Shown here piece after piece: positions 2,433 through 58,927 of a stretch of DNA of 64,000 bases (the stretch's first letter is position 1; each line of letters begins with the position of its first letter). Below the pieces are notes generated by a model that had not been told where the DNA came from, searched no databases, and saw only the letters and a list, made by a program, of their open reading frames with translations. The position numbers were made by a program, and so were the translations under genes. The stretch comes from Candidatus Altimarinota bacterium (lineage in GTDB: Bacteria > Patescibacteriota > Gracilibacteria > UBA4473): NCBI GenBank assembly GCA_965231215.1, contig OZ246423.1:896001-960000 (forward strand), read 5' to 3'.

Positions 2433-5400
2433 TTAAAATCGCACTGTCTGAGCATCAATCCGGTTAAAATTTGGCTGACCTTTGAGTTTCACATAGAGCG
2501 TAATATTGACGTTGCCTCGAGTTGTTCCTTTGGCAACAAAGACTTGTTTGTATTTGGTGATATCAGTCCATTTTTCATCCAGTAATATTTTTTCTGGTTG
2601 ACTAATAACCACCTGTGCGGCTTCAACGGTTTCAGGTTTAGGGAACACCATTTCTACCGACAAGGTTCTGAATTGTTTATCTACCTTCAAAATACTTGGG
2701 TTTTTAGCCTCAATAAGGCCTTCACGAGTAATCTGAATCGGAATAGATTTTTCGCTCAAATTGTCATGAATATCCCAAGCGCGGATCATGAGGAAGGTTC
2801 GTCCCATGCGTTCGGGAGCCTCAAAGTTTCTCGTAAATGGAGCTTGAGTGTTGGTTCCTAAGCTCTGGTTATTTACAAAAAATTCGGCTTTGCTGACCCG
2901 AGATTGATGGTCTTTGATATCGGCTAAAATTTGAATATTGGAATTAATCGGAATATTTTGATTGGCTAGTGGACCGAGGAAAATGATTTCTGGCCCCGCC
3001 GTATCTTGCTCTACATTTACTCGTACCTCATCTTCTCCGGCGGCGAGATTGGCCGAAATAGCCACGGCTCGAATAGTATGGCTAGAACCCAAATCCGTGT
3101 CTTCTGGAATACTAAATCTTCCAGTGAATGGAGGCTTTTGGGCTCGGTAAATGAGTTCATCGTCAAAGTAGTATTCTACGACCTGAATGTTTTGTGGATG
3201 ATAGTTGATTTGAACTTCAACTTCCCCTGGGGTAATGGTATTTCTTGGACTCAAAATAGAGACTTCTGGCGGGTTGGCTTTGGTTTCAAATTGACTCCAA
3301 TCAATAGTCCCTTCACGTTTCATCATGTTTCTCAGTTTTCGCTGCATAAAGGGAGGCAGGTCTTTGAAATAACTTTCGGTCAGGTCGTTCATTGGATCTT
3401 TAGAATTTTCTGCATCATCTTCGTCTTTTGGCGTGTCCATTTCTACCCCGAGAGTGGCAAAGAAAAGTGGATGTTCTTGAATCCATTTTTCTACGGGTTC
3501 AATCCAATTTGGCAGGTCTGGGCGAAGTGAAGTAAGGGAGAGTATAGGGAGTGTTTTTTTGGCAAAGGCCGGTGTACGAAAATCCGCCTTTTCCCCATTA
3601 AAGATATTAATAGTTTTTACGGCTACCGAATCATCGAGTTCTGTAGGCTGGTTAAAGCTGGCAAAGTATTCTGTGACTTTGAGGTTTTCTGGTGTTTGAT
3701 CTGTGGCTAGTTTTCCTGATAACCGATTAATTTCCATAGCCAATAGGGCTTTAGATTCAAGGTATGGCTTGTCTTTGTCCCCCCCCCGCTCTTTAATGAG
3801 TTGGTCATGAGCTCCTTCCATAAAGTTTTTCCAGAGTGGGGCGGCTACAGTCAGTCCAGTAGCTCCGGATTTCATAGGTTTACCACGATTATTTCCTACC
3901 CAAAAGCCAGTTACCAAATGTGGAGAAAACCCAATAGTCCACGAATCTCCTGGGACAGTAATGAATTTTCGGTTTTCGTCTGATTCTGGTTCGGCTTCAT
4001 TAAAGGCTGGATTTTTAGCGACTCGGTTAGAAGTTCCGGTTTTGGCTCCATTGTTAATCCCTTCTATCTGCAAGAAATTATTCCAGTCAAAGTCATTAGT
4101 GGTGGGTCTTGAAGTTTCATCAGTTAATACGTTGCGTACCAAGGCGGCTACTTCGGGATCTACGGCTTCTTTTTGGTTTTGAGTGTTATCGACTTTTTCC
4201 AGGACTTTCCCTTCAGCATTCCTGATTTCCAAGATGGCAGAAGGGGGGAAGTAGGTTCCGTCATTAGTAAAAGTCTGATAAGCAGAAATGTGAGAGAGCG
4301 GTTCTACTTCGGCTACTCCTACCCCAATAGCGACTCCATGAGTATCCGCATCACCCTCGTATTTGATGCCCATTTTTCCTGCCATTTCTAGTACTTTGTT
4401 AGGCGTGGCAAGAACGGCCATTTTTACAGCCGGGATATTGAGACTCCGATTTAAAGATTCTCGGAAAGAAACTGGACCACTAAAACTTTCATCAAAATTT
4501 TGTGGTGTATATCCAGCTCCAAAATCAGTTTTGACATCAAACACCACCGTGCCTGGAGCATACCCAGCTTCAAATCCCGCAGCGTACACTATTGGTTTAA
4601 AGCTTGATCCTGGTTGGCGAGAGGAAGTCAGCACATCTACCTGTCCGTCACTTTCGGTATCAAAGAAATTTTTCCCTCCGATGTAGGCGAGGATTTCTCC
4701 ATTATCTGGATTGATACTGGTCATAGCTACATTTTCTGCGCCGTAAGTACCGACGTAGTGAGCGGTTTTTTCTTTTACCAAAGTCTCAGCCAAATTTTGA
4801 AGATCTGGGTCTAGCGTGGTGTAGATTCTTAACCCTCCTTGGTCTAGGAATTCTTTTCCGTATTTTTCTTCCAGTCTTTCTCGTACATAAAATACAAAGT
4901 GAGGAGCTTTGATATCAGTTCGGGCACGTTTGAATTCGAGTTCCAAACTTTCAGCCCAGGCCTGGTTGAACTGATCTGAAGTCACATAACCCAACTCTAA
5001 CATTCGTTGAAGGACTATGTCTTTTCTCCCTTTTTTATAAGTTCGTGGTCCTTTTGGTTTGGCTTTTTCATCGGCTTCCTCAGCGGACTCTTCGGCAACA
5101 TCAGAGGTTTGGTTTTCCTCTGCGGCTCGGGCTTCGGCCTCAGTGCTGAATTCTTCATATTCATAAAATCCCATTAAGAGATCTTTGTTTGATCCGTAAG
5201 GGCTAAACCGTGTTGGCGCTACGGGGATACTGGCCAGTATAGCACTTTCAGCGATGGTCAGGTCACGAGCGGATTTTCCAAAATAGGTTCGAGCCGCCGC
5301 CTCGATCCCGTAGGCATTGTTACCGTACGAGATTTTATTGAGATAGAGTTCTAAAATTTCATCTTTGGTATAATGCCATTCTAGTTTTATGGCAATGAGG

Positions 5401-5924
5401 AGTTCCTTGAACTTTCTTATAAATTTTCTCTCTGAGCTTAAAAATACTTGTTTAGCGAGTTGTTGGGTGATGGTAGAGCCTCCACGCCTAGGGCCAATAC
5501 CAAAAAATTCATACAAAACAGCTTTTCCGATACCTCCAATATCAAATCCAAAGTGTGAATAAAATTGATCATCTTCAATCGCCAAGGTGGCTTTGACCAC
5601 CCAAGGAGAAATTTCATCTAGAGGAATATATTCCCGATTTTCATCTCCATGGATTACGTACAAGATGTGTTCAGCGGGATTGGCGGCCGGATTCAAAGCT
5701 TCACGATCATAAATAATAGTAGATTCGGCAAAGCTGAGTTCTTCGGCATTGTCTACACTGGGGAGGAAAATAGAACCATAGGCATATAAGGCCACTAAGG
5801 TGACAATGCTTAAAATCAAGATATTTCGTTTCCAGTGTAGGCAGATTGATTTTTTTCGTTCACGCTTAAAAGGATTAAACTTTTTCCACCAGGCTTGTTT
5901 TCGTCGGAAACGTTTTATGCGCAT
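2433..5924 (-). CDS. Class A penicillin-binding protein (PBP1A family) with C-terminal Ig-like domains
   Basis: AIEDDQF, GGSTITQQL, RKFKE transglycosylase motifs; PGSSFKP, SLN, KTGT transpeptidase motifs; C-terminal beta-rich Big-like repeats. Confidence 0.92.
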   Translation of the reverse strand: MRIKRFRRKQAWWKKFNPFKRERKKSICLHWKRNILILSIVTLVALYAYGSIFLPSVDNAEELSFAESTIIYDREALNPAANPAEHILYVIHGDENREYIPLDEISPWVVKATLAIEDDQFYSHFGFDIGGIGKAVLYEFFGIGPRRGGSTITQQLAKQVFLSSERKFIRKFKELLIAIKLEWHYTKDEILELYLNKISYGNNAYGIEAAARTYFGKSARDLTIAESAILASIPVAPTRFSPYGSNKDLLMGFYEYEEFSTEAEARAAEENQTSDVAEESAEEADEKAKPKGPRTYKKGRKDIVLQRMLELGYVTSDQFNQAWAESLELEFKRARTDIKAPHFVFYVRERLEEKYGKEFLDQGGLRIYTTLDPDLQNLAETLVKEKTAHYVGTYGAENVAMTSINPDNGEILAYIGGKNFFDTESDGQVDVLTSSRQPGSSFKPIVYAAGFEAGYAPGTVVFDVKTDFGAGYTPQNFDESFSGPVSFRESLNRSLNIPAVKMAVLATPNKVLEMAGKMGIKYEGDADTHGVAIGVGVAEVEPLSHISAYQTFTNDGTYFPPSAILEIRNAEGKVLEKVDNTQNQKEAVDPEVAALVRNVLTDETSRPTTNDFDWNNFLQIEGINNGAKTGTSNRVAKNPAFNEAEPESDENRKFITVPGDSWTIGFSPHLVTGFWVGNNRGKPMKSGATGLTVAAPLWKNFMEGAHDQLIKERGGDKDKPYLESKALLAMEINRLSGKLATDQTPENLKVTEYFASFNQPTELDDSVAVKTINIFNGEKADFRTPAFAKKTLPILSLTSLRPDLPNWIEPVEKWIQEHPLFFATLGVEMDTPKDEDDAENSKDPMNDLTESYFKDLPPFMQRKLRNMMKREGTIDWSQFETKANPPEVSILSPRNTITPGEVEVQINYHPQNIQVVEYYFDDELIYRAQKPPFTGRFSIPEDTDLGSSHTIRAVAISANLAAGEDEVRVNVEQDTAGPEIIFLGPLANQNIPINSNIQILADIKDHQSRVSKAEFFVNNQSLGTNTQAPFTRNFEAPERMGRTFLMIRAWDIHDNLSEKSIPIQITREGLIEAKNPSILKVDKQFRTLSVEMVFPKPETVEAAQVVISQPEKILLDEKWTDITKYKQVFVAKGTTRGNVNITLYVKLKGQPNFNRIDAQTVRF

Positions 5925-13826: not shown

Positions 13827-14741
13827 ATGTCCAGTTTTTCTGTTATCATTCCCAGCTATAATGAAGGTGCGTGGCTTGAACGCACTGTTATGGGCGTACT
13901 GGAGAATACCAATTACCCAGAGTTTGAGATCATTATTGTAGCCGATAACTGCACCGATAATTCTACCGATTTTTGTAAACAAAAATCTATTCCCAACGTA
14001 GTGCTCTTGGAAACTTCACACAATTTGGGAGCGATAGAAGCTCGGAATTATGGCGCTTCTATTGCCGAGGGAGAAAACTTAGTCTTTATTGATGCTCATG
14101 AAGTTCCGGAAACCGATAATTGGATTTCGGTGCTATTTGACTTGCTTGAGAAGCCTAATACGGGAGCGGCAACAATACCGATTTCAAGCTTCGAAGACCC
14201 TCAGAGGATTGGGTATGTGTATCGCCTTAAGGATTTGGCGCTAGAGCCTGCTTGGGAGTCGAGAGAATCAAAACATTTACCATTAGTACCGGTTATTCCT
14301 GGGGGGTGTTTTGCCATTAAAAAATCTGTATTTATCGAAACAGGAGGGTTTAATCCTTTGTTAAAAAAGTGGGGGAGAGAGGACCTAGAATATTCGCTTC
14401 GTTTGTGGCGAATGGGATATGATTTGAGGTCGTCAAAGGCAGCTAAGATTGCTCACGCATTTAGCCATAAAAGAGCATTTGAGATTAGTTGGGATCAGGT
14501 GGATCATAATATTTTGCTTATTGCTGATTTATTGTTTTCCTCAGAGGCGTGTAAAAAAGTTTGTACACATTTAAAAAAGATTCGTCCACAGAATTATGAT
14601 AAAATTTATCAACAATTATTAAATAATGAAGCCTACCAAGCTTACAAAGCAAAACTACTGCTAAAGCGTAGTTTTGAGGACTATAAGATCGAGTTTAAAG
14701 ACTATTTACCAAAAAATTATTCTCTTATACCACAAGTATAA
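13827..14741 (+). CDS. Glycosyltransferase family 2
   Basis: SVIIPSYNE, ARNYGA, FIDAH, GGF...WGRED.EYS.R. Confidence 0.88.
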   Translation: MSSFSVIIPSYNEGAWLERTVMGVLENTNYPEFEIIIVADNCTDNSTDFCKQKSIPNVVLLETSHNLGAIEARNYGASIAEGENLVFIDAHEVPETDNWISVLFDLLEKPNTGAATIPISSFEDPQRIGYVYRLKDLALEPAWESRESKHLPLVPVIPGGCFAIKKSVFIETGGFNPLLKKWGREDLEYSLRLWRMGYDLRSSKAAKIAHAFSHKRAFEISWDQVDHNILLIADLLFSSEACKKVCTHLKKIRPQNYDKIYQQLLNNEAYQAYKAKLLLKRSFEDYKIEFKDYLPKNYSLIPQV

Positions 14742-15979
14742 AACATTCCAAGCCCTATATTTTTCCAGTCATTATCACTTCCAACTCTTAATGGAGTAGT
14801 GCTATAGCCAATATAACTAGGGACGATTGATCCAAGCTCTCCATGGTTTCCACTTCCCCAACACCATAAAGCACCATCATTCTTTATCGCACAAGAGTGA
14901 GAGTATCCTGAAGCAACGCTTTCCCAAGTGTTCTCACTTCCTACCTGTGTAGGAACCCTCTTACTACCTGTATAGCGTTTTCCCTGACCAAGCTGTCCAT
15001 AGTGATCTCCCCCCCAACACCACAAAGTATTATCTGTTTTTATCGCACATAAGTGTCTTTTTCCTATACCAATACTTTTCCAAGTATCGGTACCAACCTG
15101 AACGGGAGTACTTCGATCTATAGCATCATTCTGTCCTAGTTGTCCATAACGGTTATCTCCCCAGCACCACAAGGTATTATTATTTTTAGTCGCACAGGCA
15201 AATTTATTTCCAAGGTAAATATTTTTCCAATCGTTATCGCTACCAACTTGCACAGGGCTCGGTTGGTTATCTGATGGATCATTACTACCAATTCCAAGTC
15301 TTGAATCAGAATTACTCCCCCAACACGACAAAGTATTATCAGTTGTTATTCCACAAGTATGATCTAATCCTGCTGAAACATCTTTCCAAGTACCAGGTAA
15401 TCGCTTAGGGTAATGTTCATACTCATGAATTCCTCCTTTTCTGCCTATTCCTAGCTTCCCAAGGTAAGTGTGTCCCCAACACCATAACGTATTATCATCT
15501 TTTATTGCACAAACATGTCCAGCTAAACCAAATTCTATAGTATCTGCCAGACTACTTAAGTATGAAGGACTCATTCCCCAACATTGAAGATTATTTCCAC
15601 TTGAAATAGCACAAAAGGAATTCACCCCAATTCCAACTTTGTTCCAACTACTACTTTCAAACTGCTCAGGCTCATGAGTATTTGATAATCCTGGAAGAGG
15701 TGAGCTTCCCCAGCACCAAAGAGCCTCTGGAACATGGCATGCCGAAAATTCAATATTTATGGGTTTATTATTCAGAAAAGAGTGCCATCCTGTGGTGGTT
15801 TGAGTTGGAACAAATCGTTCTTTCCCATCCAAGCTCTTAATTTTTTTACAAATTCCATGAGCATTAATTATTTTATCGGCTGTTCCAATACGGAATCCAG
15901 TAAGAATGGTATTAATTGCAAAAACCTCGTCAAAAAGAAGCAATAACGAAAGTAAGAAAAATAATTTTTTTGTTCTCAT
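14717..15979 (-). CDS. Secreted RCC1/BLIP-II-like beta-propeller protein
   Basis: Signal peptide; about 7 repeats of H.CAIK.DNTLWCWG.N.YGQLG; start overlaps the stop of the upstream fibre gene. Confidence 0.85.
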   Translation of the reverse strand: MRTKKLFFLLSLLLLFDEVFAINTILTGFRIGTADKIINAHGICKKIKSLDGKERFVPTQTTTGWHSFLNNKPINIEFSACHVPEALWCWGSSPLPGLSNTHEPEQFESSSWNKVGIGVNSFCAISSGNNLQCWGMSPSYLSSLADTIEFGLAGHVCAIKDDNTLWCWGHTYLGKLGIGRKGGIHEYEHYPKRLPGTWKDVSAGLDHTCGITTDNTLSCWGSNSDSRLGIGSNDPSDNQPSPVQVGSDNDWKNIYLGNKFACATKNNNTLWCWGDNRYGQLGQNDAIDRSTPVQVGTDTWKSIGIGKRHLCAIKTDNTLWCWGGDHYGQLGQGKRYTGSKRVPTQVGSENTWESVASGYSHSCAIKNDGALWCWGSGNHGELGSIVPSYIGYSTTPLRVGSDNDWKNIGLGMFYTCGIRE

Positions 15980-17853
15980 AGATTCATAACTTCCTTTAAT
16001 TTATTAATTTGTTCTTGTTGATTTTCAATTAATTTCTGTTGTTGATCCGTTAGTTCTTTCATTTCTTTTAAGGCCTCAACAAGTATGGCATTTATATTTC
16101 CATAGCGAACCGACTTCAGCCCATCCACCTCGCTTGTTTCTACGAGTTCTGGTAGGACTCTTTCAACATCTTGAGCAATGAAACCAATAGAATTTTTATC
16201 AGAATTATTCCATTTAAATTTAACACCTTCTAATTGCTGAATAATTTTTATTGGATTTTTGATTTTCAAAATGTCTTTTTTCAAACGCTTATCAGAGGAG
16301 TAAACAAAATCTGTTGCTAGAACTGTTCCTTCAACATCTAGCTTCTGAGAAGGGGCCGTCGTCCCAATCCCGACATTACCCGTATGCGCAACCGTCATGG
16401 AAGGTGTCCCGCCATAATAGGAATTACCAGCAGCACCATCTACATAAAACCGAATATCCCCTGCATTGGACACCAAACGTATCCAGTTGCTTCCACCTTC
16501 AGAATAAAGCCCTAAATCAGTACCAGAAGCCAACCCCGCTTTGTTGATGATGCCCTCTCGAACCCTCAAACCACCACTACCAATATCCAACGTAGCACTC
16601 GGCGTCGCCGTCCCAAGACCAATATAACCATTACCACCATCAAGCGTAAAGTGCGTATTTTCCCCAACACCACCACCCACATTAATCTTGAATTTATGAT
16701 TATCTGACTGATCCAGTCCTACAGAATACCAAGCATTCCACGGATCATGGAAACGAATTTGCGAGTCAGCATCATTATTCTCAACCTCGATATTCCCGCC
16801 GCGTATCTCTAACTTATTATCCGGATCTGCCGTCCCAATCCCGACATTGCCGCCGACAAGCGCCATGTCAGTTGCAACAGAACGTAAGATAGCCGTATTA
16901 TTACTATCTGTTGTTATATCAAGAATTCTTTGGTCACCCGCTTTATCATTATTAAAAATACTAAAAAATTGATTGTCATCTAGACTTCCTGCTGGCGCAG
17001 CGCCAAGAGCCCTGCCTGCCATTATTATCCCTGAAACATTCAACTTCGCATTAGGAGACTCCGTCCCAAGCCCGACATTGCCATTCGCTGCAATACTCAA
17101 ACCATGATACCAATTGGTACCATCATTATTATAGATAGAGAGCGCATTCGGCGCACCATAAGAAGATGGTCTCTTAACAAAATCTGTAAAGTGTGAGCCA
17201 CCATTGCTACTTTGCAAACGTAACGTATGGCCAGTATTATCCGGCGAAAGAACGTGCAACGGCAAACCAGGCGTCGCCGTCCCAATGCCAACCCTACCGG
17301 TTTCTGTCACTCGCATAAGTTCAGCCCAGTTACCGCCTGGGCCAGCGGCATTTTTTCCGATGACGAGGGCTCGGTTATCATTATCATCATTATTCCAGTC
17401 CATAGAAAGATAAACATTGTCTTCCCCATTTAGCTCTAGAGCTCCATTACTGTCATAAATAGTGCCGCCTCTTACCAGCAGTGTACCATCTATTTGAAGA
17501 TCTCCGTCTTCATCAATGTTGGCTTTATCTGCATCGGCTCCTGTTCCAATCTGAAAGAGTTTTTCATTGGCGGTAGGAGAGGCTTTGTGAATTGAAAAAT
17601 GTGCCGGAAAAGTATCGGTTCCAATACCGACTTTCCCATTAAGATAATAGAGGTCTTGACCGCTGAAATTCCAAACCTGATAGCCTAAAATATCAACAGC
17701 GGTAGAGAGGCTTAGGAGATCAGTTCTTACCTTGTTCCAATCTGAGGCCCGAATAAGTTCTCCACTATTGACAGTGGGAGTGGTTATTGTCACCGCAGCG
17801 TAAGAAGTATTTGAGAAACTGAACAACAGCCATGCAAGCAATAGAGTTCTCAT
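15976..17853 (-). CDS. Secreted tail-fibre-like adhesin A (GNVGIGT repeats, C-terminal peptidase S74 chaperone domain)
   Basis: Signal peptide; repeated G[NKR]VGIGT..P...L junctions; SSDKRLKKDI...IGFIAQDVE.VLPELV...Y..I.A.LVEALKE plus coiled coil. Confidence 0.85.
   Translation of the reverse strand: MRTLLLAWLLFSFSNTSYAAVTITTPTVNSGELIRASDWNKVRTDLLSLSTAVDILGYQVWNFSGQDLYYLNGKVGIGTDTFPAHFSIHKASPTANEKLFQIGTGADADKANIDEDGDLQIDGTLLVRGGTIYDSNGALELNGEDNVYLSMDWNNDDNDNRALVIGKNAAGPGGNWAELMRVTETGRVGIGTATPGLPLHVLSPDNTGHTLRLQSSNGGSHFTDFVKRPSSYGAPNALSIYNNDGTNWYHGLSIAANGNVGLGTESPNAKLNVSGIIMAGRALGAAPAGSLDDNQFFSIFNNDKAGDQRILDITTDSNNTAILRSVATDMALVGGNVGIGTADPDNKLEIRGGNIEVENNDADSQIRFHDPWNAWYSVGLDQSDNHKFKINVGGGVGENTHFTLDGGNGYIGLGTATPSATLDIGSGGLRVREGIINKAGLASGTDLGLYSEGGSNWIRLVSNAGDIRFYVDGAAGNSYYGGTPSMTVAHTGNVGIGTTAPSQKLDVEGTVLATDFVYSSDKRLKKDILKIKNPIKIIQQLEGVKFKWNNSDKNSIGFIAQDVERVLPELVETSEVDGLKSVRYGNINAILVEALKEMKELTDQQQKLIENQQEQINKLKEVMNL
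16364..16616. repeat. 253-bp internal cassette identical to 19152-19404
   Basis: Base-by-base comparison showed no differences; encodes ATPSATLDIGSGG...AHTGNVGIG. Confidence 0.95.
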
Positions 17854-18019: not shown

Positions 18020-20881
18020 CTATTGATTTTCCAAAGCTTCAACACGAGCTTTGAGGGCATCATTTTCAGCCTTGAGCTCTTGAATTGCTTTGACGAGGAT
18101 AGGCGCCATCTGACCATAGGCCAAAGACTTCGTGCCCATCTCATCATCCGCCGTGCTCACCAGCTCCGGCACCAAAGCCTCAACCTCTTGCGCCAAGAAA
18201 CCAACCTGATGCACTTGCTCCGCCCGCTGCGCCTCATCGATCCAATCAAACGCCACCGGCTTCATCGCCATCACCGTATCCAAACCATAATCCAGATCCA
18301 CCACATTGGTCTTCAACCGAGCATCAGAAAAAGTCGACCAAGTCGACCCCGTATTCGCCCCGCCCCCCCCACCAAGTGAGGACTGAGCCACACAATTACC
18401 TCCAGAAGTATCACAAATTTGATTCGTGCGTACTCCTCCACCGTCAGCTCGAATACCCGCCCCTGAATAAAGCCACTTATTTCCATAAACTCTCAACCAA
18501 GTAGAATCGGTCATATGGAATCCTCCTCCATAATTTTGGAAATAAATTCCATTATTTCCATTCACTCGAAGCCAATCTCCTAGAATCTGAACTCCATTAT
18601 GGATGAAAATACGCCCACCAAATGTAGCATCGTTATTTTCCATATTTATAGACAAGGGCCACTGTCCATTGTATTGACACCAATTATTACCCCCTCCAAC
18701 GCCATCATTACCACAACCTCGTAAAAAATACATTACATTAGCATTCATATGTATCATGGCCGAACGATGATCTACATCTCTAAAGTAAATGGTTGGGTAA
18801 TTACTTCGAATGGTTAACCCATTGGCATATCCATCGCCTCCATTCCCAACCTGAAGTTTGGTAGTTGGGCTTGAAGTTCCAATCCCGACATTGCCCTGCA
18901 TACCAAAATAACTTAGGTTAGGCCTAAAAACGGCATACTCTGTATATTCTCCGGGATTATCTCTCCATCTAAAAATCCTTAACCCTTGATCATAATTATC
19001 AATGGTAATTCGCCCATTTCTATTGCTTTCTGGATCAGCATTCATTAACACCATTTCACCTCCTTCAGTAGCTGTGTTTTGAGAGTCTATTCTCAAATAA
19101 TTGGTTCTCAAATCCCCAGCTACCTGTAGTTTTGAGGTTGGATTAGCGATTCCAATCCCGACATTACCCGTATGCGCAACCGTCATGGAAGGTGTCCCGC
19201 CATAATAGGAATTACCAGCAGCACCATCTACATAAAACCGAATATCCCCTGCATTGGACACCAAACGTATCCAGTTGCTTCCACCTTCAGAATAAAGCCC
19301 TAAATCAGTACCAGAAGCCAACCCCGCTTTGTTGATGATGCCCTCTCGAACCCTCAAACCACCACTACCAATATCCAACGTAGCACTCGGCGTCGCCGTC
19401 CCAATCCCGACATTACCAGAAGGTTTAATAGTTACTTTTTCAGAAAATGAACCAAAACCAATATTAGGGGCTAAGCCTTCAGTATTCCAATGTCCTAATC
19501 TTATATCTGTTGTAGAGCCTGCTGCAATAGCCGGATATTGCCCATTCTTTTTCACAAACCCTAAACGAGAATTAACACCAGAGTCAGCTCCCATATAAAT
19601 ATCCTCTCCAGTGGCTACTACATTTCCTCCAGCTACTAATTTTGTCTTGGTCCCAAAAGGGCTCGGAGATGTAGCAGTACCAGCCAGAACGATACCCCCT
19701 GTTGGGTTAAGCAGAAGATTCCTGGCGTTATTAGTCGCATTAAACTCTTTATGGTAAGCCTGTAACCAAGGCCCTCCATCAGCAACACCTATATCCATAA
19801 CATTTGTACTATTTACAGTCTGAAATCGAGCTATAGCCCCAGGACTAGGGGTAGTAGCATCTGGCAGCGATTGTCCAGACGATGTTACATGTAATTTTTC
19901 CAATGGAGTATTAGTCCCAATCCCGACATTGCCAGAAGCCCGAGTAACGTTGCTACCACTTTCTGTCCAGGTAGAACTCCCGCCACCACTACTCAAACTT
20001 CCAGCGGGAACACAGTTACCTCCATTTTGATCACAGTACTCTGTAGCGCCTATTTTCCCTTCAACATCTAGCTTTAGCCCCGAGGAGGGGCTGATTGTAC
20101 CAATCCCGATATTCCCATTTCCTAGATTCAAGGTCATCATATCACCGCCACCACCAGTAGAAGAAAATCTAGCTGTATCCTGAGCTCCTGCATAAGTTTT
20201 TATTCTTAATGAGTCTGTAGCATTACTAATAATTAAGCCGTCATCACTAGCTCCACCATTAACTTTCATATCTCCGACCACCTGAAGCGCATGAGATGGA
20301 TTTGCCGTCCCAATGCCAACCCTACCGGTTTCTGTCACTCGCATAAGTTCAGCCCAGTTACCGCCTGGGCCAGCGGCATTTTTTCCGATGACAAGGGCTC
20401 GGTTATCATTATCATCATTATTCCAGTCCATAGAAAGATAAACATTGTCTTCCCCATTTAGCTCTAGAGCTCCATTACTGTCATAAATAGTGCCGCCTCT
20501 TACCAGCAGTGTACCATCTATTTGAAGATCTCCGTCTTCATCAATGTTGGCTTTATCTGCATCGGCTCCTGTTCCAATCTGAAAGAGTTTTTCATTGGCG
20601 GTGGGAGAGGCTTTGTGAATTGAAAAATGTGCCGGAAAAGTATCGGTTCCAATACCGACTTTCCCATTAAGATAATAGAGGTCTTGACCGCTGAAATTCC
20701 AAACCTGATAGCCTAAAATATCAACAGCGGTAGAGAGGCTTAGGAGATCAGTTCTTACCTTGTTCCAATCTGAGGCCCGAATAAGTTCTCCACTATTGAC
20801 AGTGGGAGTGGTTATTGTTATCGCAGCGTAGGAAGTATTTGAGAAACTGAACAACAGCCATGCAAGCAATAGAGTTCTCAT
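18020..20881 (-). CDS. Secreted tail-fibre-like adhesin B (GNVGIGT repeats, PilV-like segment, C-terminal peptidase S74 domain)
   Basis: Same N-terminus as A; many GNVGIGT junctions; FSDARLKTNV...VGFLAQEVE.LVPELV...LVKAIQEL. Confidence 0.85.
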   Translation of the reverse strand: MRTLLLAWLLFSFSNTSYAAITITTPTVNSGELIRASDWNKVRTDLLSLSTAVDILGYQVWNFSGQDLYYLNGKVGIGTDTFPAHFSIHKASPTANEKLFQIGTGADADKANIDEDGDLQIDGTLLVRGGTIYDSNGALELNGEDNVYLSMDWNNDDNDNRALVIGKNAAGPGGNWAELMRVTETGRVGIGTANPSHALQVVGDMKVNGGASDDGLIISNATDSLRIKTYAGAQDTARFSSTGGGGDMMTLNLGNGNIGIGTISPSSGLKLDVEGKIGATEYCDQNGGNCVPAGSLSSGGGSSTWTESGSNVTRASGNVGIGTNTPLEKLHVTSSGQSLPDATTPSPGAIARFQTVNSTNVMDIGVADGGPWLQAYHKEFNATNNARNLLLNPTGGIVLAGTATSPSPFGTKTKLVAGGNVVATGEDIYMGADSGVNSRLGFVKKNGQYPAIAAGSTTDIRLGHWNTEGLAPNIGFGSFSEKVTIKPSGNVGIGTATPSATLDIGSGGLRVREGIINKAGLASGTDLGLYSEGGSNWIRLVSNAGDIRFYVDGAAGNSYYGGTPSMTVAHTGNVGIGIANPTSKLQVAGDLRTNYLRIDSQNTATEGGEMVLMNADPESNRNGRITIDNYDQGLRIFRWRDNPGEYTEYAVFRPNLSYFGMQGNVGIGTSSPTTKLQVGNGGDGYANGLTIRSNYPTIYFRDVDHRSAMIHMNANVMYFLRGCGNDGVGGGNNWCQYNGQWPLSINMENNDATFGGRIFIHNGVQILGDWLRVNGNNGIYFQNYGGGFHMTDSTWLRVYGNKWLYSGAGIRADGGGVRTNQICDTSGGNCVAQSSLGGGGGANTGSTWSTFSDARLKTNVVDLDYGLDTVMAMKPVAFDWIDEAQRAEQVHQVGFLAQEVEALVPELVSTADDEMGTKSLAYGQMAPILVKAIQELKAENDALKARVEALENQ
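19152..19404. repeat. 253-bp internal cassette identical to 16364-16616
   Basis: Direct comparison. Confidence 0.95.
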
Positions 20882-21113: not shown

Positions 21114-24100
21114 TTAGTTTTTACGGCAATAGAGTACGGCGACATTCTTTGGTCGGGTTTCAGCGCCACCAACGGCGTTTGATGCATTCGCAATGACGCC
21201 GTTATTATAGCCTCGTTGATAATGCCCGCCAAAGGACCAACCGCTGCCATTATAGGAATTTTGCGGAATATGCTCGTGTGACTTAAATTCATCTTCTTGC
21301 GTGCTTCCCGGCGCTCTCACCCCGCCAGGGTCAATGGTTCCGGTGCTGTCAATACCCCGCAAGAAGCGTCCGCGTGCAGCGGTATATTCGCTCCATCCAG
21401 CAGGGCAGGACGTCAAGTCAAACGCCTGAATCTCTCCAGAAATTCGGCCGCCACCCGAACTGCCGCCGGAGCTGCCGAAATAGCCACAACGGCCCTCATC
21501 ACAAATATCGGCCAAATCCACACCGGCACCATCCGTGGCACCACAACGGGTGCTTAAACCACTAATACCAGAAATATTTCCAGTTCCATCAAAGGCGATA
21601 TACCGATTAAAATTCCCTACAATTGCATACCAAACCGAGTCATTCTTGTGTTCCGACATAACCAGAATCTGACCCCATGTTCCCGAGCTGTAATTACACA
21701 TCAAGTAATCCGGCCACTTCGAAACACCCGCAGGCGCGACCGGTAACTTCAGTGTCGACGCAAGATTAGACCCCGCGATAGCATCAGAAATAGCCGCCCC
21801 CGAACTCGAACCCGACCCGCCGCCGGGTACAACTTTATATACCTTATAATCCACCGTGCCGCCGCAGCCTGCATTGTTGTAGATGGTCATGGAGATTTTA
21901 CTCGAGCCATCCGTTCCAAAGGTGGCGTACATATAGCCGCAGCCTGCCGTGCTATAGGTCGGTTCAAGTGCGGCGATGTATTCGTAACCGTTTGCTAGCC
22001 CCGTTACGGCAGAGGCGTATGAATTACCTGGGACAGTGGCGGTACCGGACGCTACTTCTTCCAGCCCCAGTGCGCTGCCACCCCCCGAACTCGACCCGCC
22101 GCCACCGAAATAGATGACTTTACCTTCGCTGATGAGCGTATCTATCGATTTGCCGTTACAGTCTGAGCCGGTGGCATGCGTCTGATAAGCCGCAGTCTGC
22201 GCCTTAGTCGTGGGATGGAAGATGAACTGCGCATTGTCCGAATCACTCGGGTCGGAATTCGCGACATAATAGACGCCGTTGGTTGCGTGGTCATGATCGG
22301 CGATAAACATTCGTGTGTAGCCATTTTGCGTACATTTTAGCGCATCCGGCCAGCCGGATTTGAACACACCGGTTGGTGTGCTCGAACTCGACGAACCCGA
22401 GCTGCCGCCGACTTTAAAGCCGGAGAAATGGGATTCCCTTACGGTTCGTGCGGTGCCGCCATTGTGATAGACAATGACTTCAACCACATCATTGGCATTG
22501 AGATAGGCTATTCCAGAACAGCTAAATGCTCCTGAATTGCCTGACACTGTGGTGTTATGTCGCGCATAACAAATACTATCTGCTGCCGCGGATTTGCCAG
22601 CATGATTCTTCTGAATTCTAATGATTTGATCGGAGCCAGAGGCCTCAATTTCAGCAGAGGCGTTAAATTGGTAAAAACCTGTTGACGGCACGGTAAATTT
22701 GCCGGTTGATGTATCGTAATTGTTGCCTCCCTCCTCCTGTATCTCGGTCGCAAAAACAAGGTCGGACCATGTATTGTGTGTGGCAGTTTGTGTCCCATCC
22801 CCAATCGCCTGGAATGAAACAGCCGACCCCCCACCCGAACTCGACGAACCCGACCCGCCGCAGTTTTTCTGGAGCGATGTGACGGCAGAGTCGGTGCTAT
22901 AACTTGCTGTCCCTTCAGTACGATAGCGACGCGTACCCTTAGCGCTGCTTTGAATCGTATATTCAAAGTTAGTGCCAGAACTCGCAAAATCCACGAAGAA
23001 TATCTCAGCAGCTTTTACTTTATAGGCATACATAATATTGCCACTACCCTGCTCTGCACGATAGTCGCAGCTTGTATCAAAACTATTAGTATCACTTAGG
23101 CTGACCTCTTCCCAGCCCCCACCCAAACTCGACGAACCCGATCCGCCGCTTCCCCATTCCTTCCAGGCAATGGTTTTGAACTGTAGGGTCTGCGCATATT
23201 GTTGGTCGTTGGAGGCGACTTCAAACAAGGTCGTGTGATAGCTGAACATGATATTGGTGGCGTCGTAGCCCAGAGCGGAGCCGCGCTTGGTGGCACCGCC
23301 GTTGAATTGGTTGCCGTCGGAGCTGAGATGCTGGGTGATATTGCCGGAGCTGTCCTTTAAATACCCGACCGCAAAGACCGGCTCGGCCCCGAACCCATGC
23401 GCGAAGTTGCGGGTATTCGTCCCGGCTGCCAGCGTCACCCAGCCGGAATCGAAGTCCGGCGTGCCAAGCGCACCGCCGGTGCCACTGCCGCCCGAACCCG
23501 ACCCGCCGCCGGACATTTTGAAGCCGGAGAAATGGGTGTGGTAGGCGCCTGCGCTTCCATACGGGGTTTCAGCGCCGGCAGCCCGAATGTCGATCTGGTC
23601 GCCCGCTGTCAGTTCCAGAATGAAGGAGGCATCGCTTCGCCGATATCTAACACTGCCGCCAACGCCTCCGTAGGATGCGATCAGCATGTTGACGCCATTT
23701 TTATAGACCCAGTAGTCTGAGTTGTCTGTATTGTTCTGCCCCAGAATCTCATAGGAGAAATGATAGGTGCCGTCGGACGGGGCGACATAGCGGTTGTTGG
23801 TGAGGTCGAAATCATCACCGATATTGGTCAGCGCCAGATCCCAGGTCACGACATCACCGGTAGACGCGGACTGATGTGCGGTTTTGACGACGGTGAAGGC
23901 GGATTCCGGCGTCGACGAACTTGATCCACCGCCAGAGCTGCCGCCGCCGAGCATGTAGCCGTAGAAGAGACTATCGGCTGGATGTCCAAGATTCACACGC
24001 CCGCGATTGCTGAAATAGATACTGAGTTCATCATTCACCGCCGCATCAATCAACACACATCCAGAATTTGTTTCTGCGTTCGGATTGTTATATTGGCTGG

Positions 24101-26840
24101 ACTGTCCACCATTAACAACAGCGCCATTCTTATGAATTTCCGTGTGGAACTCAGCATTATTATGATTGTAATATTGCCAACAGACATTGTAGATCCCCTT
24201 CGTCGGCACCGTATAAATCCCCGTCGTAGCATCAAAACCACTATCCGTGTCCAAATCCACCGTGTCATAAACCATGGCCCCCGCACCACTTTGCACCGCC
24301 GTCTGACGCGCTGAAAACGCCACCGGAGAAGCAGAATCTGATCCACCGCTAGACCCCGACCCGCCGCCGGAACCAAGGAGATACGCTTTCATCGTCGCGG
24401 CAACAGACGGCGTAGCATCGTTGCTATGTGCAATAACACTAAGATAATCGGTCGTACCGTTCATCTCCACAACTTGTGTAATACTGTGATAAGCATCACT
24501 ACCATTAAGGTTTACATATCCAGAATCGTTAGCAACAGATGCACCATTTTTGCTAATAGTCGTAGAACACCACTTATTCGCATCGATACTCCGGCAAACA
24601 ACATTGGCTATCACGAGATATTTACCGGCAACATTCGGGGTAAAACGCCCTGTCGCCGTGTCATGCAAATTTCTGGAATCGGAACCCACTGAGTCAAGAA
24701 CAATCTCTGTCCATGCATTCTGCGGTATCGACTTCGCCGCCGAAGTTGCAACATGAACATAAACCTCCTCCCCCGAAGAACCACCGCTAGACCCCGAACC
24801 GCCGCCGGAGATTTTGAAGCCGGAGAAGTGGGTGTTTGCGCCTTCCAGATTGATCGAGGCGCCGTTAGTATTATACCCAGAAACCTGAACCACATCTCCT
24901 GCAGCCAGTTCTACCACGGCAGAGCAGGATGGTGCGTGGTCAAGGTTTGAATTTTTACCTCTAGCACTGCTGAGACAGAGCGTTTCGATATTGCCACCAC
25001 CCAAATCCTTATAGATGCGTATCAACAGACCATTATTATTGGAGCTGCCATTCATCAAACTCGACGTAAATAGATAGGTACCAGTACTTGGGGCGGTAAA
25101 TTTTCCGGTTGAGGCGTTGTAATTTGAACCGCCATTTTGATGTTGTATCGTTGGAAAGATTGTATTTGCCCAGGTCTGTGAGGCAATTGATGTAGTCGAA
25201 CCTGTCGCCCTGAATGAAATTTCTTCACCCGAACCGCCCGAGCTGCCGCCGCAGTTTTTCTCGACTTGATTGACCGTGAAGCTTCCTCCCCAAGAGGCAC
25301 CCGTTCTGAGATTGTAGCTATTTTTGCTGCCTTTGGGGATGCGGAACTCGATCTCCGTACCGCTGGAATTCCATTGGGTAAAGTAGGCGTAATCGGCAGC
25401 GACCAATGTCGCGTAAAATTTTTGTCCGCCTGAGGGGCTATCCAATGTCGTACGATAATCGCAGGCAGTGTCAAAGTCTGCCGTGTCGCTTAGGCTGACC
25501 TCTTCCCAGCCGCCGCCACTACTCCCTCCACTCGCTAGGGATCCCCAAGTTGATCCATCACAGACTTGGACTGCCCCTCCTTGGTATCGGATTGTTCCGG
25601 CTTTCGTGTTGTCACAGGCAGCTGTATCATCTCCAATCTTGACTCCTCCAGCTATATCTAATAGCGCTGCTGGAGTAGCGGTTCCTATCCCTACTTGACC
25701 ATCTTCATCGACTCTCATTAATTCTACCCAATTGTCTCCTGGGCCCGGACTATTCTTTCCTATAATTAAGGCTCTTGTGTCTACATCATTGTTATTCCAG
25801 TCCATTCCGATGTAAATGTCATCTTCTCCACTTAATTCTAGGTTTCCGTAACTATCATAAACATCGCTGCCTCGTACCAATAAATCTCCATCCAAAAAGA
25901 CGTCTCCGTCTTCATCTATGGCGAATCTATTATCGTCTCCACTAATGCCTACCTGAACCAGTACTTGGTTGGCCGCAGGAGTATCCTGGTAGACATAAAA
26001 GTTTGCTCCAGGACTAGTAAGGCCTATCCCGACCTTTCCACTACTATAATGAATGTCTCCTGAGGGGCTGCCCTCTTCCCACTTTCCGCCTCCTAAAACT
26101 TCCCAACTACTTCCATCATAATAAAAATATTCATTACTTGAAGTATTGTAATATGTATCTCCTGCATCTGGGCTCTCTGGCGGAGTTGTATCAGTCACGG
26201 AGTTACTAATTTCTACCCAGCTACTTCCATTATAAAAATAGATTTGATTATCTGTTGTATTATAAAAAACATCTCCTTCACTGCCACTGCCTGGATTACT
26301 CCCCCCACGCTGAATAGCACTTGCGCCGCCTCCGCTTGCAATGCTGGAGGCTACGTCCGAGGGCACTACACAATTATTTCCCAAAGCATCACAGTATTCT
26401 ACGGCTCCCACTTTTCCTGCTATGTCTAGTTTTAGTCCTGGACTTATACTCGAGGTACCAATACCTACATTACCTAAGGGGTAATTAATATCACTAGAGG
26501 ATTTTATCCAATACTGTTCTGGAAGATTGGTCAATTGTGATCCATCTCCTATAAATCTAGTGGCTTTTACGTTTCCGTTTACCTCTAGTTTTTGGGTTGG
26601 TGAAGCTGATTCTAGGCCAATTCCAAATCGATCATCACCTAAAGCGCTGGTGCCTTGATCATTTCGTTTAAGCCCCTTCACTACATTTACTAAAGTATTT
26701 AGCTCTGTAGCGGTAAAAGCATCTCCCGTTTCTTTTGCGGGTATAGACGAGGCATCATATTCTGCGGCTTTAACTGGCTCAAATACAGTCAAAACGGTCA
26801 TAAGTACTATCACGCAAACGCTAAGAGAGATGTGGCGCAT
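21114..26840 (-). CDS. Giant secreted mosaic fibre/adhesin C (1908 aa): fibre stalk, ~12 Gly/Ser-linked modules (several C1q-like), terminal tail-collar-like domain
   Basis: Signal peptide; GNVGIG stalk; modules with TGKFTAP..G.Y.F and HFSGFK (C1q-like); C-terminus GEIQAF...CPAGW...GRFLRG...GSTQEDEFKSH.H...ETRPKNVAVLYCRK typical of phage tail-collar proteins. Confidence 0.8.
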   Translation of the reverse strand: MRHISLSVCVIVLMTVLTVFEPVKAAEYDASSIPAKETGDAFTATELNTLVNVVKGLKRNDQGTSALGDDRFGIGLESASPTQKLEVNGNVKATRFIGDGSQLTNLPEQYWIKSSSDINYPLGNVGIGTSSISPGLKLDIAGKVGAVEYCDALGNNCVVPSDVASSIASGGGASAIQRGGSNPGSGSEGDVFYNTTDNQIYFYNGSSWVEISNSVTDTTPPESPDAGDTYYNTSSNEYFYYDGSSWEVLGGGKWEEGSPSGDIHYSSGKVGIGLTSPGANFYVYQDTPAANQVLVQVGISGDDNRFAIDEDGDVFLDGDLLVRGSDVYDSYGNLELSGEDDIYIGMDWNNNDVDTRALIIGKNSPGPGDNWVELMRVDEDGQVGIGTATPAALLDIAGGVKIGDDTAACDNTKAGTIRYQGGAVQVCDGSTWGSLASGGSSGGGWEEVSLSDTADFDTACDYRTTLDSPSGGQKFYATLVAADYAYFTQWNSSGTEIEFRIPKGSKNSYNLRTGASWGGSFTVNQVEKNCGGSSGGSGEEISFRATGSTTSIASQTWANTIFPTIQHQNGGSNYNASTGKFTAPSTGTYLFTSSLMNGSSNNNGLLIRIYKDLGGGNIETLCLSSARGKNSNLDHAPSCSAVVELAAGDVVQVSGYNTNGASINLEGANTHFSGFKISGGGSGSSGGSSGEEVYVHVATSAAKSIPQNAWTEIVLDSVGSDSRNLHDTATGRFTPNVAGKYLVIANVVCRSIDANKWCSTTISKNGASVANDSGYVNLNGSDAYHSITQVVEMNGTTDYLSVIAHSNDATPSVAATMKAYLLGSGGGSGSSGGSDSASPVAFSARQTAVQSGAGAMVYDTVDLDTDSGFDATTGIYTVPTKGIYNVCWQYYNHNNAEFHTEIHKNGAVVNGGQSSQYNNPNAETNSGCVLIDAAVNDELSIYFSNRGRVNLGHPADSLFYGYMLGGGSSGGGSSSSTPESAFTVVKTAHQSASTGDVVTWDLALTNIGDDFDLTNNRYVAPSDGTYHFSYEILGQNNTDNSDYWVYKNGVNMLIASYGGVGGSVRYRRSDASFILELTAGDQIDIRAAGAETPYGSAGAYHTHFSGFKMSGGGSGSGGSGTGGALGTPDFDSGWVTLAAGTNTRNFAHGFGAEPVFAVGYLKDSSGNITQHLSSDGNQFNGGATKRGSALGYDATNIMFSYHTTLFEVASNDQQYAQTLQFKTIAWKEWGSGGSGSSSLGGGWEEVSLSDTNSFDTSCDYRAEQGSGNIMYAYKVKAAEIFFVDFASSGTNFEYTIQSSAKGTRRYRTEGTASYSTDSAVTSLQKNCGGSGSSSSGGGSAVSFQAIGDGTQTATHNTWSDLVFATEIQEEGGNNYDTSTGKFTVPSTGFYQFNASAEIEASGSDQIIRIQKNHAGKSAAADSICYARHNTTVSGNSGAFSCSGIAYLNANDVVEVIVYHNGGTARTVRESHFSGFKVGGSSGSSSSSTPTGVFKSGWPDALKCTQNGYTRMFIADHDHATNGVYYVANSDPSDSDNAQFIFHPTTKAQTAAYQTHATGSDCNGKSIDTLISEGKVIYFGGGGSSSGGGSALGLEEVASGTATVPGNSYASAVTGLANGYEYIAALEPTYSTAGCGYMYATFGTDGSSKISMTIYNNAGCGGTVDYKVYKVVPGGGSGSSSGAAISDAIAGSNLASTLKLPVAPAGVSKWPDYLMCNYSSGTWGQILVMSEHKNDSVWYAIVGNFNRYIAFDGTGNISGISGLSTRCGATDGAGVDLADICDEGRCGYFGSSGGSSGGGRISGEIQAFDLTSCPAGWSEYTAARGRFLRGIDSTGTIDPGGVRAPGSTQEDEFKSHEHIPQNSYNGSGWSFGGHYQRGYNNGVIANASNAVGGAETRPKNVAVLYCRKN
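26071..26762. repeat. ~690-bp constant region of fibre C, inverted paralogous copy at 63058-63749
   Basis: Colinear and ungapped, high identity by eye (roughly 85-90%). Confidence 0.9.
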
Positions 26841-58793: not shown

Positions 58794-58927
58794 AACGATA
58801 AAAGTAATTGGTTAATAAGCTTATCCCAAAACTATTCCAGGCGCTAAAACCTCCCAGTGTTTAGCTAGGTTTTTGTTTTCCAACATTAAGATTTTATTTA
58901 AAATAAAGTTTGAAAAATAAAAACCCA

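Follow-up and report, generated by a model that had tools for sequence, protein, structure and literature searches.

The window analysed here is a stretch of 64,000 nucleotides (positions 896,001 to 960,000 of contig OZ246423.1) from Candidatus Altimarinota bacterium, whose genome is a single contig of 1,326,059 bp with a guanine plus cytosine (GC) content of 39.9%. This account concerns Fibre C, which is encoded on the minus strand of the window at 21114-26840 (C1:917114-922840 on the contig) by one uninterrupted open reading frame (ORF) of 1908 aa. The protein has a signal-peptide-like start and a 436-aa stalk (M0), followed by twelve modules of 83-139 aa (M1 to M12; 249-417 bp) and twelve Gly/Ser linkers of 8-13 residues, the linkers being defined by a scan for [GS]{5,} within Fibre C. 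All linkers lie on one strand and in one codon phase, and none of the cassettes carries a start or stop of its own. An earlier note, made from the letters of this DNA, had described a beads-on-a-string series of heterologous modules translated as one polypeptide, and the layout given below confirms it. Its module size of 250-420 bp is close to the measured range, and its ten linker positions were all recovered together with two extra ones at 21447-21476 and 25509-25532. Its list of domains (two WEEVSLSDT, five C1q-like, one PDFDSGW, two WPD, one LEEVASG and a collar-like cap) holds, with M3 as a sub-threshold C1q module. Contigs from Logan confirm the assembled order, matching Fibre C with 0 differences in two stretches (21114-23799 and 23874-25605); an assembly chimera is thereby excluded. 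The parts of the gene, in the order of the protein, are as follows.

26766-26840, minus strand: signal-peptide-like hydrophobic N-terminus, residues 1-25 (..VKA/AE, read off the translation by eye)
25533-26840, minus strand: M0, native stalk, residues 1-436, GC at third codon positions (GC3) 0.317, genome-like codons; PHROG tail-fibre matches, and same-genus genomes match
25533-25724, minus strand: neck motif, residues 373-436, with two Cys, preceding the first linker; recurs ahead of tip modules in many related fibres
25509-25532, minus strand: linker 1, SGGSSGGG
25251-25508, minus strand: M1, WEEVSLSDT..KNC module, 86 aa, GC3 0.605
25227-25250, minus strand: linker 2, GGSSGGSG
24810-25226, minus strand: M2, C1q-like, 139 aa, C-terminus HFSGFKI; Pfam C1q 51.3 bits
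24771-24809, minus strand: linker 3, SGGGSGSSGGSSG
24375-24770, minus strand: M3, C1q/BclA-like, 132 aa, under the Pfam cut-off; C1q 16.9 bits, E 0.0074
24339-24374, minus strand: linker 4, GSGGGSGSSGGS
23949-24338, minus strand: M4, C1q-like, 130 aa; Pfam C1q 41.3 bits
23913-23948, minus strand: linker 5, GGGSSGGGSSSS
23514-23912, minus strand: M5, C1q-like, 133 aa, GC3 0.669, cassette common to two paralogous fibres; Pfam C1q 51.7 bits
23481-23513, minus strand: linker 6, SGGGSGSGGSG; paralogue homology stops within it
23154-23480, minus strand: M6, PDFDSGW module, 109 aa, GC3 0.771
23127-23153, minus strand: linker 7, GSGGSGSSS
22860-23126, minus strand: M7, second WEEVSLSDT..KNC module, 89 aa; 43% identity to M1
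22824-22859, minus strand: linker 8, GGSGSSSSGGGS
22410-22823, minus strand: M8, C1q-like, 138 aa, C-terminus HFSGFKV; Pfam C1q 36.5 bits
22380-22409, minus strand: linker 9, GGSSGSSSSS
22107-22379, minus strand: M9, WPD..C module, 91 aa; WPD profile match 2.7e-22
22074-22106, minus strand: linker 10, GGGGSSSGGGS
21825-22073, minus strand: M10, LEEVASG module, 83 aa, orphan
21798-21824, minus strand: linker 11, GGGSGSSSG, exact copy of the 17-nt motif described below
21477-21797, minus strand: M11, divergent WPD..C module, 107 aa; WPD profile match 5.6e-17
21447-21476, minus strand: linker 12, GSSGGSSGGG
21117-21446, minus strand: M12, tail-collar-like C-terminal module, 110 aa; phrog_523 tail collar fiber 1.2e-12

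Module kinds and their relatives

The modules of Fibre C belong to at least six mutually unrelated kinds. Four of the five C1q-like modules pass the gathering cut-off of Pfam C1q (PF00386; 23.7 bits), and M3 is grouped with them by a custom hidden Markov model (HMM) and by the module tree described below only. One HMM built from WPD modules matches both M9 and M11. The C-terminal module M12 matches a second PHROG family (phrog_6459, 8.6e-6) besides the tail collar fiber family listed above and has no match to the Pfam collar family PF07484 at E <= 5, and it is therefore called collar-like here and not a member of that family. Modules of 14 proteins share 45-56% identity with M12, and M12-type modules were found at 43 genome loci (22 alphaproteobacterial, 5 from Bdellovibrionota, 7 Patescibacteria-type and 9 other, as labelled in the records) and on 8 viral contigs. 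The remaining four kinds (M1/M7, M6, M9/M11 and M10) have no Pfam or PHROG family, which makes them leads to new lectin-like folds. NCBIfam likewise offers no name for Fibre C or for either of the two fibres clustered with it.

Modules of the M6 and M7 types are rare elsewhere. A phmmer search with M6-M7 against 1.84 billion representatives returned 15 proteins including Fibre C, in which the M7-type relatives are again flanked by glycine-rich linkers and stand beside WPD and C1q modules. The relatives of M6 are PDYDSGW tandem-repeat proteins (P0035, P0037-P0039 and P0041). M9-M11 gave one weak match among shorter proteins, and M10 retrieved only itself, both when searched alone and among the foreign proteins compared. 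Searches of the Atlas placed M6 (0.95) and M10 (0.89) with phage clusters, a few of which carry H_lectin or Gp53-like_C; recognition was below the trust mark, and these placements serve as leads only. A scan of viral contigs with the WPD and M7 patterns found no relatives. AlphaFold2 predicts M7 as an all-beta domain with a predicted local distance difference test score (pLDDT) of 92.1 and models M9 with a pLDDT of 79.9. Foldseek returned no significant match for either model (M7: best PDB E 0.77, best BFVD E 0.36; M9: best PDB E 0.9).

For the C1q run, the closest PDB sequence matches are two fused chains: 5hkj_A, which joins C1q A, C and B (E 1.2e-19), and 5kca_A, which joins three units of Cerebellin-1. 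We take both to be engineered single-chain trimers. The alignments cross the natural junctions between the C1q modules of Fibre C, at the positions where the fused chains have their connecting segments. The naturally linked C1q modules of Fibre C thus parallel engineered single-chain C1q/TNF binders. These matches raise the idea that M2-M5 pack within one chain as pseudo-trimeric C1q heads and that the array is monomeric, an idea to which we give little weight. The C1q runs of Fibre C itself are of four modules and of one, and the 52 runs in 27 proteins have lengths of 1 (n = 32), 2 (11), 3 (3), 4 (3) and 5, 6 and 10 (one each), a spread that follows no multiple-of-three rule: 32 runs are single and only four are of length 3 or 6. 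Also speaking against a monomer is the homology of the stalk to fibres with an S74 trimerisation chaperone. P0003, P0005 and similar relatives have WPD and collar modules embedded between stalk segments, and this arrangement together with the C1q run lengths favours a homotrimer in which each module would trimerise in register, as the most likely form of assembly predicted for Fibre C.

Composition, linker DNA and ancestry of the array

The earlier note had remarked that the gene turns GC-richer after its constant half, and measurement bears this out. GC rises from 0.437 in M0 to 0.455-0.593 in the modules and 0.744 in the linkers, against 0.399 for the genome. GC3 lies between 0.402 and 0.771 in the modules, and all twelve are above the genome mean (0.335, standard deviation 0.066, maximum 0.61 over 5408 windows of 100 codons), with M5 and M6 above every window in the genome. 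The modules also differ from one another: GC3 is heterogeneous over the twelve (chi2 63.4, df 11, p 2e-9) and homogeneous in M0 and in the two neighbouring S74 fibres when these are cut to pieces of similar size (p 0.88, 0.6 and 0.16). Matches to Fibre C were found in 19 of 40 relatives and are confined to residues 1-471, and a search for the array in 400 other genomes sampled from the phylum gave 0 matches at E <= 1e-5. In two same-genus genomes the largest fibres (2667 and 1775 aa) consist of stalk throughout, have a GC3 of 0.26-0.34 and contain no Gly/Ser-linked array. The array is foreign to its lineage and compositionally heterogeneous.

The linkers carry a signature of their own at the DNA level. 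Among their Ser codons (n = 57) TCG makes up 47.4% compared with 6.9% in the genome, and among their Gly codons (n = 68) GGC makes up 48.5% compared with 15.5%, with GGA at 7.4% compared with 42.8%. This is not the usual way in which the organism writes such runs, since the same genome has 44 further Gly/Ser runs in long ORFs away from the fibre loci, and these use TCG at 4% and GGC at 17%. The claim that the linker codons are uncommon therefore stands, but not as a property of the linkers alone: the module bodies are GGC-rich too (40%), and so it is the whole array that is compositionally odd. The linkers nevertheless resemble one another more than codon bias predicts. The 17-nt word GGCGGCGGGTCGGGTTC, allowing <=3 mismatches, has eight matches in the 1.33-Mb genome, and all eight fall within the Fibre C gene. 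Fourteen of the 66 linker pairs have a 12-mer in common. The expected number is 2.64 +/- 1.85 if the linker peptides are recoded at random with synonymous codons at the frequencies found in the linkers themselves (2000 simulations, none of which reached 14), and 0.96 at the codon frequencies of the modules. The likeness of the linker DNA exceeds what amino acids and codon bias explain, and the DNA-level junction signature proposed in the earlier note is supported by these numbers.

This likeness reaches about 10 codons into the module edges. In M1 and M7, identical residues are written with the same codon at 9 of 13 edge positions and at 4 of 25 interior positions (Fisher p 0.0028), and the HFSGFK C-terminal edges of M2, M5 and M8 show the same pattern (16/20 compared with 44/103 in the interior, p 0.0029), in tests whose pairs overlap and so are not independent. 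Direct repeats of seven families (D1, D2, D3, D5, D7, D9 and D12) are located on linkers and module edges. As an example, 52 nt are 88% identical between the M5/linker-6 and M2/linker-3 junctions of modules whose proteins are about 27% identical. No inverted repeats were found at the Fibre C linkers. A signature of this kind might be read as a translational device, in which clusters of the rare codons TCG and GGC slow the ribosome between domains for folding and the DNA likeness is convergent. TCG and GGC are indeed minority codons genome-wide that dominate in the linkers, and the linkers stand exactly at domain boundaries. Against such a device, the other 44 Gly/Ser runs lack the bias, and it does not account for the excess of shared 12-mers under the linkers' own codons, for the synonymous-site likeness that extends into the module edges or for the GGC-rich module bodies. 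We regard it as highly improbable.

Phylogenetic comparison addresses whether the modules arose from one another. The nearest relatives of several C1q-like modules are in foreign proteins: M8 is 51% and M2 39% identical to modules of P0004, M3 is 43% identical to one of P0019, and P0008 carries a relative of M5 at 63%, while M2 and M8 are 38% identical to each other. A quick tree was built on 138 columns for 96 C1q modules found in 27 proteins, and many of its forks are unresolved. On it the five Fibre C modules require five label changes, and the approximately unbiased (AU) test rejects a single clade for them (delta lnL 171.9, p 0.0014). By this test and by its heterogeneous GC3, Fibre C does not qualify as a recent tandem-repeat protein, whose units would be mutually closest and similar in composition. 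A protein of that classical kind does exist in the same genome: an ORF of 2718 aa (C1:272388-280541) contains six copies of an SGSSGS run that are identical in DNA and recur every 203 aa, in contrast with Fibre C.

An older origin by tandem duplication within the gene, followed by divergence, with linkers and edges kept alike by gene conversion and with no foreign input, is another reading. In its favour, M1/M7 and M9/M11 are kinds that occur twice and C1q occurs five times, linker likeness beyond codon bias with an edge effect is what conversion tracts would be expected to leave, and arrays in other genomes lack a DNA grammar of this sort. Duplication would not supply at least six unrelated module kinds, though, nor modules that are foreign and heterogeneous in composition, and it is at odds with the AU test, with the fact that M2 and M8 are each nearer to P0004 than to each other and with the different appearance of the true recent repeat protein of 2718 aa. 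Duplication as the sole source of the array is very unlikely in our estimation.

Foreign proteins that match the array number 24 and are 1062-2916 aa long. They are built from mixtures of C1q, collar, WPD and S74 modules, and Gly/Ser linkers are present in many of them. Any one of them covers at most 34% of the array, and the module order of Fibre C occurs in none. A metagenome scan with P0004 gave one 4-kb contig (L058) with 49% identity and a single short Gly/Ser run. Evidence for movement comes from M5, which recurs with 82% and 81% protein identity (P0009 and P0011) at the end of the two paralogues of 1241 and 1245 aa in the same genome. The shared DNA forms a block of 403 columns with 88.8% and 88.1% identity to the two paralogues and with flanks at 36% and 40%; it starts directly after the upstream linker and stops within linker 6 after TCCGGCGGCGGGT. 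Independent Logan contigs of the paralogues lose their homology to Fibre C at 23501 (inside linker 6) and at 25521 (inside linker 1). The presence of M5 on two paralogues as a linker-bounded block implies that at least one module moved on its own.

These data bear on the proposal that a GC-rich donor, for example an alphaproteobacterium, put the array together with its linkers, that a single fusion event joined it to the native stalk at linker 1, that the likeness of the linkers is a legacy of the donor and that nothing has been added since. The codon usage of the linkers resembles that of arrays in loci of 55-63% GC, the array was found in neither the 40 relatives nor the 400 phylum genomes, and the switch from stalk to array at linker 1 is sharp. 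A single block from one donor is harder to reconcile with a module GC3 of 0.40-0.77 that is heterogeneous where native genes cut in the same way are not, with the M5 block on two paralogues or with the limit of 34% coverage by any foreign protein. The exact linker motif, moreover, is nearly missing from 43 related loci, where it has two matches at <=2 mismatches. A one-block transfer is unlikely on this evidence, although it deserves more consideration than duplication or a translational role.

Genome context and paralogous fibres

Fibre C is the first gene of a minus-strand cluster that continues with a fibre of 953 aa, a fibre of 625 aa and an RCC1-repeat protein. About eight fibre paralogues including Fibre C are present in the 1.33-Mb genome. 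Five of the others lie elsewhere in it, and four of these form a second cluster at or just past the right end of the window. A scan for promoters and terminators gave counts no higher than in shuffles. The other members of the family in and next to the window, together with the RCC1-repeat protein, are listed here.

18020-20881, minus strand: neighbouring paralogous fibre, 953 aa, with a C-terminal Peptidase_S74 chaperone
15976-17853, minus strand: neighbouring paralogous fibre, 625 aa, Peptidase_S74
14717-15979, minus strand: RCC1-repeat protein, 420 aa, directly downstream of the three fibres, with a 4-bp overlap with the gene of the 625-aa fibre
58910-60478, plus strand: paralogous fibre, 522 aa, with a related stalk, a GSGGGGGS linker and one C1q-like tip
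62992-63999, plus strand: start of an 868-aa paralogous fibre that continues past the window end
L001 7729-11454 and 12456-16193: paralogues of 1241 and 1245 aa, just past the right end of the window

The paralogues are alike at one end and different at the other. Over residues 1-296, three paralogues share 74-77% identity with Fibre C and a fourth shares 38%, and the Cys-containing neck (residues 381-435) is 96% identical in two, with divergence from linker 1 onward. The C-termini differ, and the Peptidase_S74 domain of the 953-aa and 625-aa neighbours is absent from Fibre C. The genes that surround the fibre cluster are housekeeping genes, and a scan of the neighbouring genes revealed none of a contractile injection system.

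Several further observations concern the paralogues and the foreign proteins. In the 1241-aa paralogue, a TAA stands right after TCC GGC GGC GGG in the linker that follows its C1q module (L001 11440-12325; G000:C1:965440-966325). Past that TAA the +1 frame is open for about 290 aa and encodes an RCC1-like part and the same Cys-rich acidic C-terminus as in the 868-aa fibre. GGG-TAA-A may serve for +1 frameshifting, unless the gene is simply broken; in the 1245-aa copy the +1 frame closes after about 72 aa. A Cys-containing connector of about 30 aa (..DTLAGLSC..GQ...W.G..W.C..) stands between modules of P0006, P0013, P0016, P0022, P0032 and P0034, and it is also present ahead of the C1q module in the 1241-aa and 1245-aa paralogues, which makes it a type of junction distinct from the pure Gly/Ser run. 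P0004, P0010, P0013, P0015, P0016, P0022 and P0031 have a type IV pilin-like hydrophobic N-terminus in place of signal peptide and stalk, so pilin-like proteins may be another platform for the display of this module pool. Elsewhere in the window (2433-5924, minus strand) lies a gene for a class A penicillin-binding protein with transglycosylase and transpeptidase parts and two C-terminal Big_7 Ig-like domains.

The resemblance of an ordered series of cassettes with repeated junctions to an integron, raised in the earlier note, was followed up in the same genomic context. In its general form the explanation is a system akin to an integron or shufflon, where the linkers would be the sites at which cassettes are inserted or inverted by a site-specific recombinase. 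The likeness in its favour is a formal one of ordered cassettes and a repeated junction sequence. PF00589 has two matches only in the genome (C1:883210-883737 and 818248-818751), and the two tyrosine recombinases (330-339 aa) are about 34 and 99 kb from the gene. The neighbours are housekeeping genes, the linkers run on one strand and in one frame without inverted repeats, and the cassettes are without starts or stops of their own. With no recombinase nearby and no inverted repeats, the comparison is formal only; as a mechanism the analogy fails, and we give a recombinase-driven system hardly any chance. Membership of Fibre C in an integron proper was rejected because there is no IntI-type recombinase next to the array, because attC-like inverted repeats are missing and because there is one ORF instead of separate cassettes. 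Two adjacent RVT_1 matches, one in an ORF of 455 aa and one in an ORF of 674 aa (C1:327388-329326), could represent a retroelement or a diversity-generating element. At about 590 kb they are distant from Fibre C, which was accordingly set aside as the target of a diversity-generating retroelement, with no search made for a template repeat.

A proposed polyvalent fibre and its known counterparts

The reading that we favour, and consider reasonably probable, is that Fibre C is a phage-tail-fibre-like fibre resembling the mosaic adhesive trimer (MAT) kind, of the type without S74, that became a polyvalent adhesin through in-frame shuffling of modules at its linkers. The paralogues have the native N-terminal anchor, stalk and neck in common and differ in their C-terminal tips. 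Other members of the family carry one tip or an S74 chaperone, whereas Fibre C carries twelve independently folding tip-type modules in series on flexible linkers. These comprise jelly rolls of the C1q/TNF-like type, a cap resembling a tail collar, and small beta domains of four kinds for which no fold match is known. The modules may have been acquired on separate occasions or from several donors, out of a pool of fibre modules common to Alphaproteobacteria, Bdellovibrionota, Patescibacteria-labelled metagenome-assembled genomes and phages. Joining and exchange could proceed by ordinary homologous or microhomology recombination or by gene conversion, with the linker-coding DNA and ~10 codons at either end of each module as the presumed recombination zone. 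Because the linkers are all in one codon phase, every such exchange would be in frame. Fibre C would then be secreted, located at the surface and able to present many receptor-binding specificities on one stalk. Indirect support for a trimeric, intertwined, surface-exposed beta stalk is provided by the PHROG tail-fibre matches of M0 and by the homology to S74 fibres.

The claim of the earlier note that the array grew by insertion at its linkers fits this proposal in part. GC3 heterogeneity, polyphyly of the C1q modules, the M5 block and the searches of relatives and phylum genomes that did not find the array lend indirect support to growth or exchange at linkers; no insertion event was observed. 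Several other points weigh against the proposal. No alternative module order or recombination event was seen, and the material consisted of contigs from three runs of one study that show the assembled order and have joints in the stalk only, where paralogues cross-map. There is no orthologous array for comparison, so the case for growth by insertion is drawn from composition and phylogeny. Five comparator arrays of other genomes (L045, L047, L040, L017 and L027) share linker DNA at chance level (P 0.1-1.0), which indicates that the DNA grammar is not general to the architecture and could reflect homogenisation inside Fibre C. The Gly/Ser linkers of arrays in 55-63% GC alphaproteobacterial loci use GGC at 0.30-0.77 and TCG at 0.10-0.33, and the likeness of the Fibre C linker codons to these fits a single GC-rich donor, at least for the linkers. 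The overlap of pairs in the edge tests belongs to the same side of the account. For M1/M7 and the WPD modules, which have no fold match, the label of binding domain is taken from context. The host itself, with its 1.33-Mb genome among relatives in family and class of 0.7-2.0 Mb, may be a host-dependent symbiont like those of the candidate phyla radiation (CPR).

A bolder version of the shuffling proposal would make Fibre C an expressed cassette library. Its phase-locked linkers and module edges would then be a junction grammar, independent of any recombinase, for in-frame insertion, deletion and exchange of receptor-binding domains. Partners in exchange would be the other fibre genes of the same genome and a module pool that spans phyla and phages. 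The GC-rich composition of the linkers and the newest modules could have been left by frequent recombination or by recent import. We put this forward tentatively and hold it to be doubtful. If it were true, a symbiont or predator of 1.3 Mb could re-tool and broaden its host range without dedicated machinery. The junction grammar at the DNA level would in that case be a testable, machinery-free mechanism for the shuffling of adhesin domains. To our knowledge, the known answers to host recognition by ultrasmall host-dependent bacteria and predators are type IV pili and single-tip MAT fibres. Twelve tip domains on one stalk suggest a compact route to broad or combinatorial host recognition and provide a concrete set of domains for ligand tests.

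Polymorphic toxins are one known system in which short conserved sequences border exchangeable modules. The VENN motif of CdiA and the PxxxxDPxGL motif of Rhs mark swappable C-terminal modules and provide homology for recombination; one terminal toxin module is replaced at a time, and orphan cassettes lie downstream. Fibre C differs in that its modules accumulate in frame, are all translated and look like binding domains and not toxins. Much nearer in design are giants found in metagenomes (P0002, P0004, P0006, P0008, P0013, P0016 and P0022) of 1.9-2.9 thousand amino acids, with 10-17 Gly/Ser runs and with C1q, WPD, collar and other modules. Several of them have pilin-like N-termini or a C-terminal S74 in place of the stalk of Fibre C, and many use the DTLAGLSC..W.C connector besides Gly/Ser runs. 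That these giants share the poly-module design indicates that the architecture is recurrent. In the open literature, with subscription journals and supplements outside the scope of the search, no description of serial multi-tip fibres or of bacterial tandem C1q arrays was found, and the tandem C1q proteins in the portions of the sources available were from molluscs only.

Fibres with C1q tips offer a further comparison, and C1q-like tips of the BclA type belong with them. In the accessible part of one report, bacterial fibres, including those of extracellular contractile injection systems (eCIS), bear C1q/TNF-like jelly rolls as terminal receptor-binding domains, sometimes with Peptidase_S74, and horizontal acquisition is proposed for them (PMC12923769). 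As far as that text goes, such fibres have one C1q domain each (PMC12923769), whereas Fibre C has five of different lineages in one chain. The MAT fibres of Bdellovibrio bacteriovorus are, in the available text of their description, a secreted multigene family of ~1000-aa proteins with a conserved N-terminal part and a diversified C-terminal tip, divided into S74 and non-S74 subfamilies, with tips that include TNF/C1q-like folds, and 'tip swapping' is proposed for them (PMC10769870). Fibre C resembles them in that its two neighbours carry S74, its paralogues share their N-terminus and M12-type modules occur in five Bdellovibrionota loci. The resemblance is one of layout. The differences lie in the host, which has a 1.33-Mb genome and is not Bdellovibrio, and in the number of tips, since each MAT fibre bears one C-terminal tip domain in the same account (PMC10769870) and Fibre C bears twelve in series on Gly/Ser linkers.

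For the way in which the modules may be exchanged, the most instructive comparison is with the gp38 adhesins of T2/T6-type phages. In the portion of the source at hand, conserved glycine-rich motifs (GRMs) of gp38 separate hypervariable segments, and exchanges take place in or near the motifs (PMC3157838). Fibre C likewise alternates conserved glycine-rich junctions with variable specificity units, and the logic of gp38 would extend to its linkers. The two have no sequence homology. The units of gp38 are short loops in one domain whose structural core is formed by the GRMs, according to the same text (PMC3157838), whereas the units of Fibre C are whole domains of 83-139 aa and its Gly/Ser stretches look like flexible spacers. 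The junction grammar suggested for Fibre C would thereby carry the idea of conserved glycine motifs from loops to whole domains. The gp38 adhesins are the closest mechanistic precedent for Fibre C, and fibres of the MAT and phage-tail-fibre kind are its closest family.

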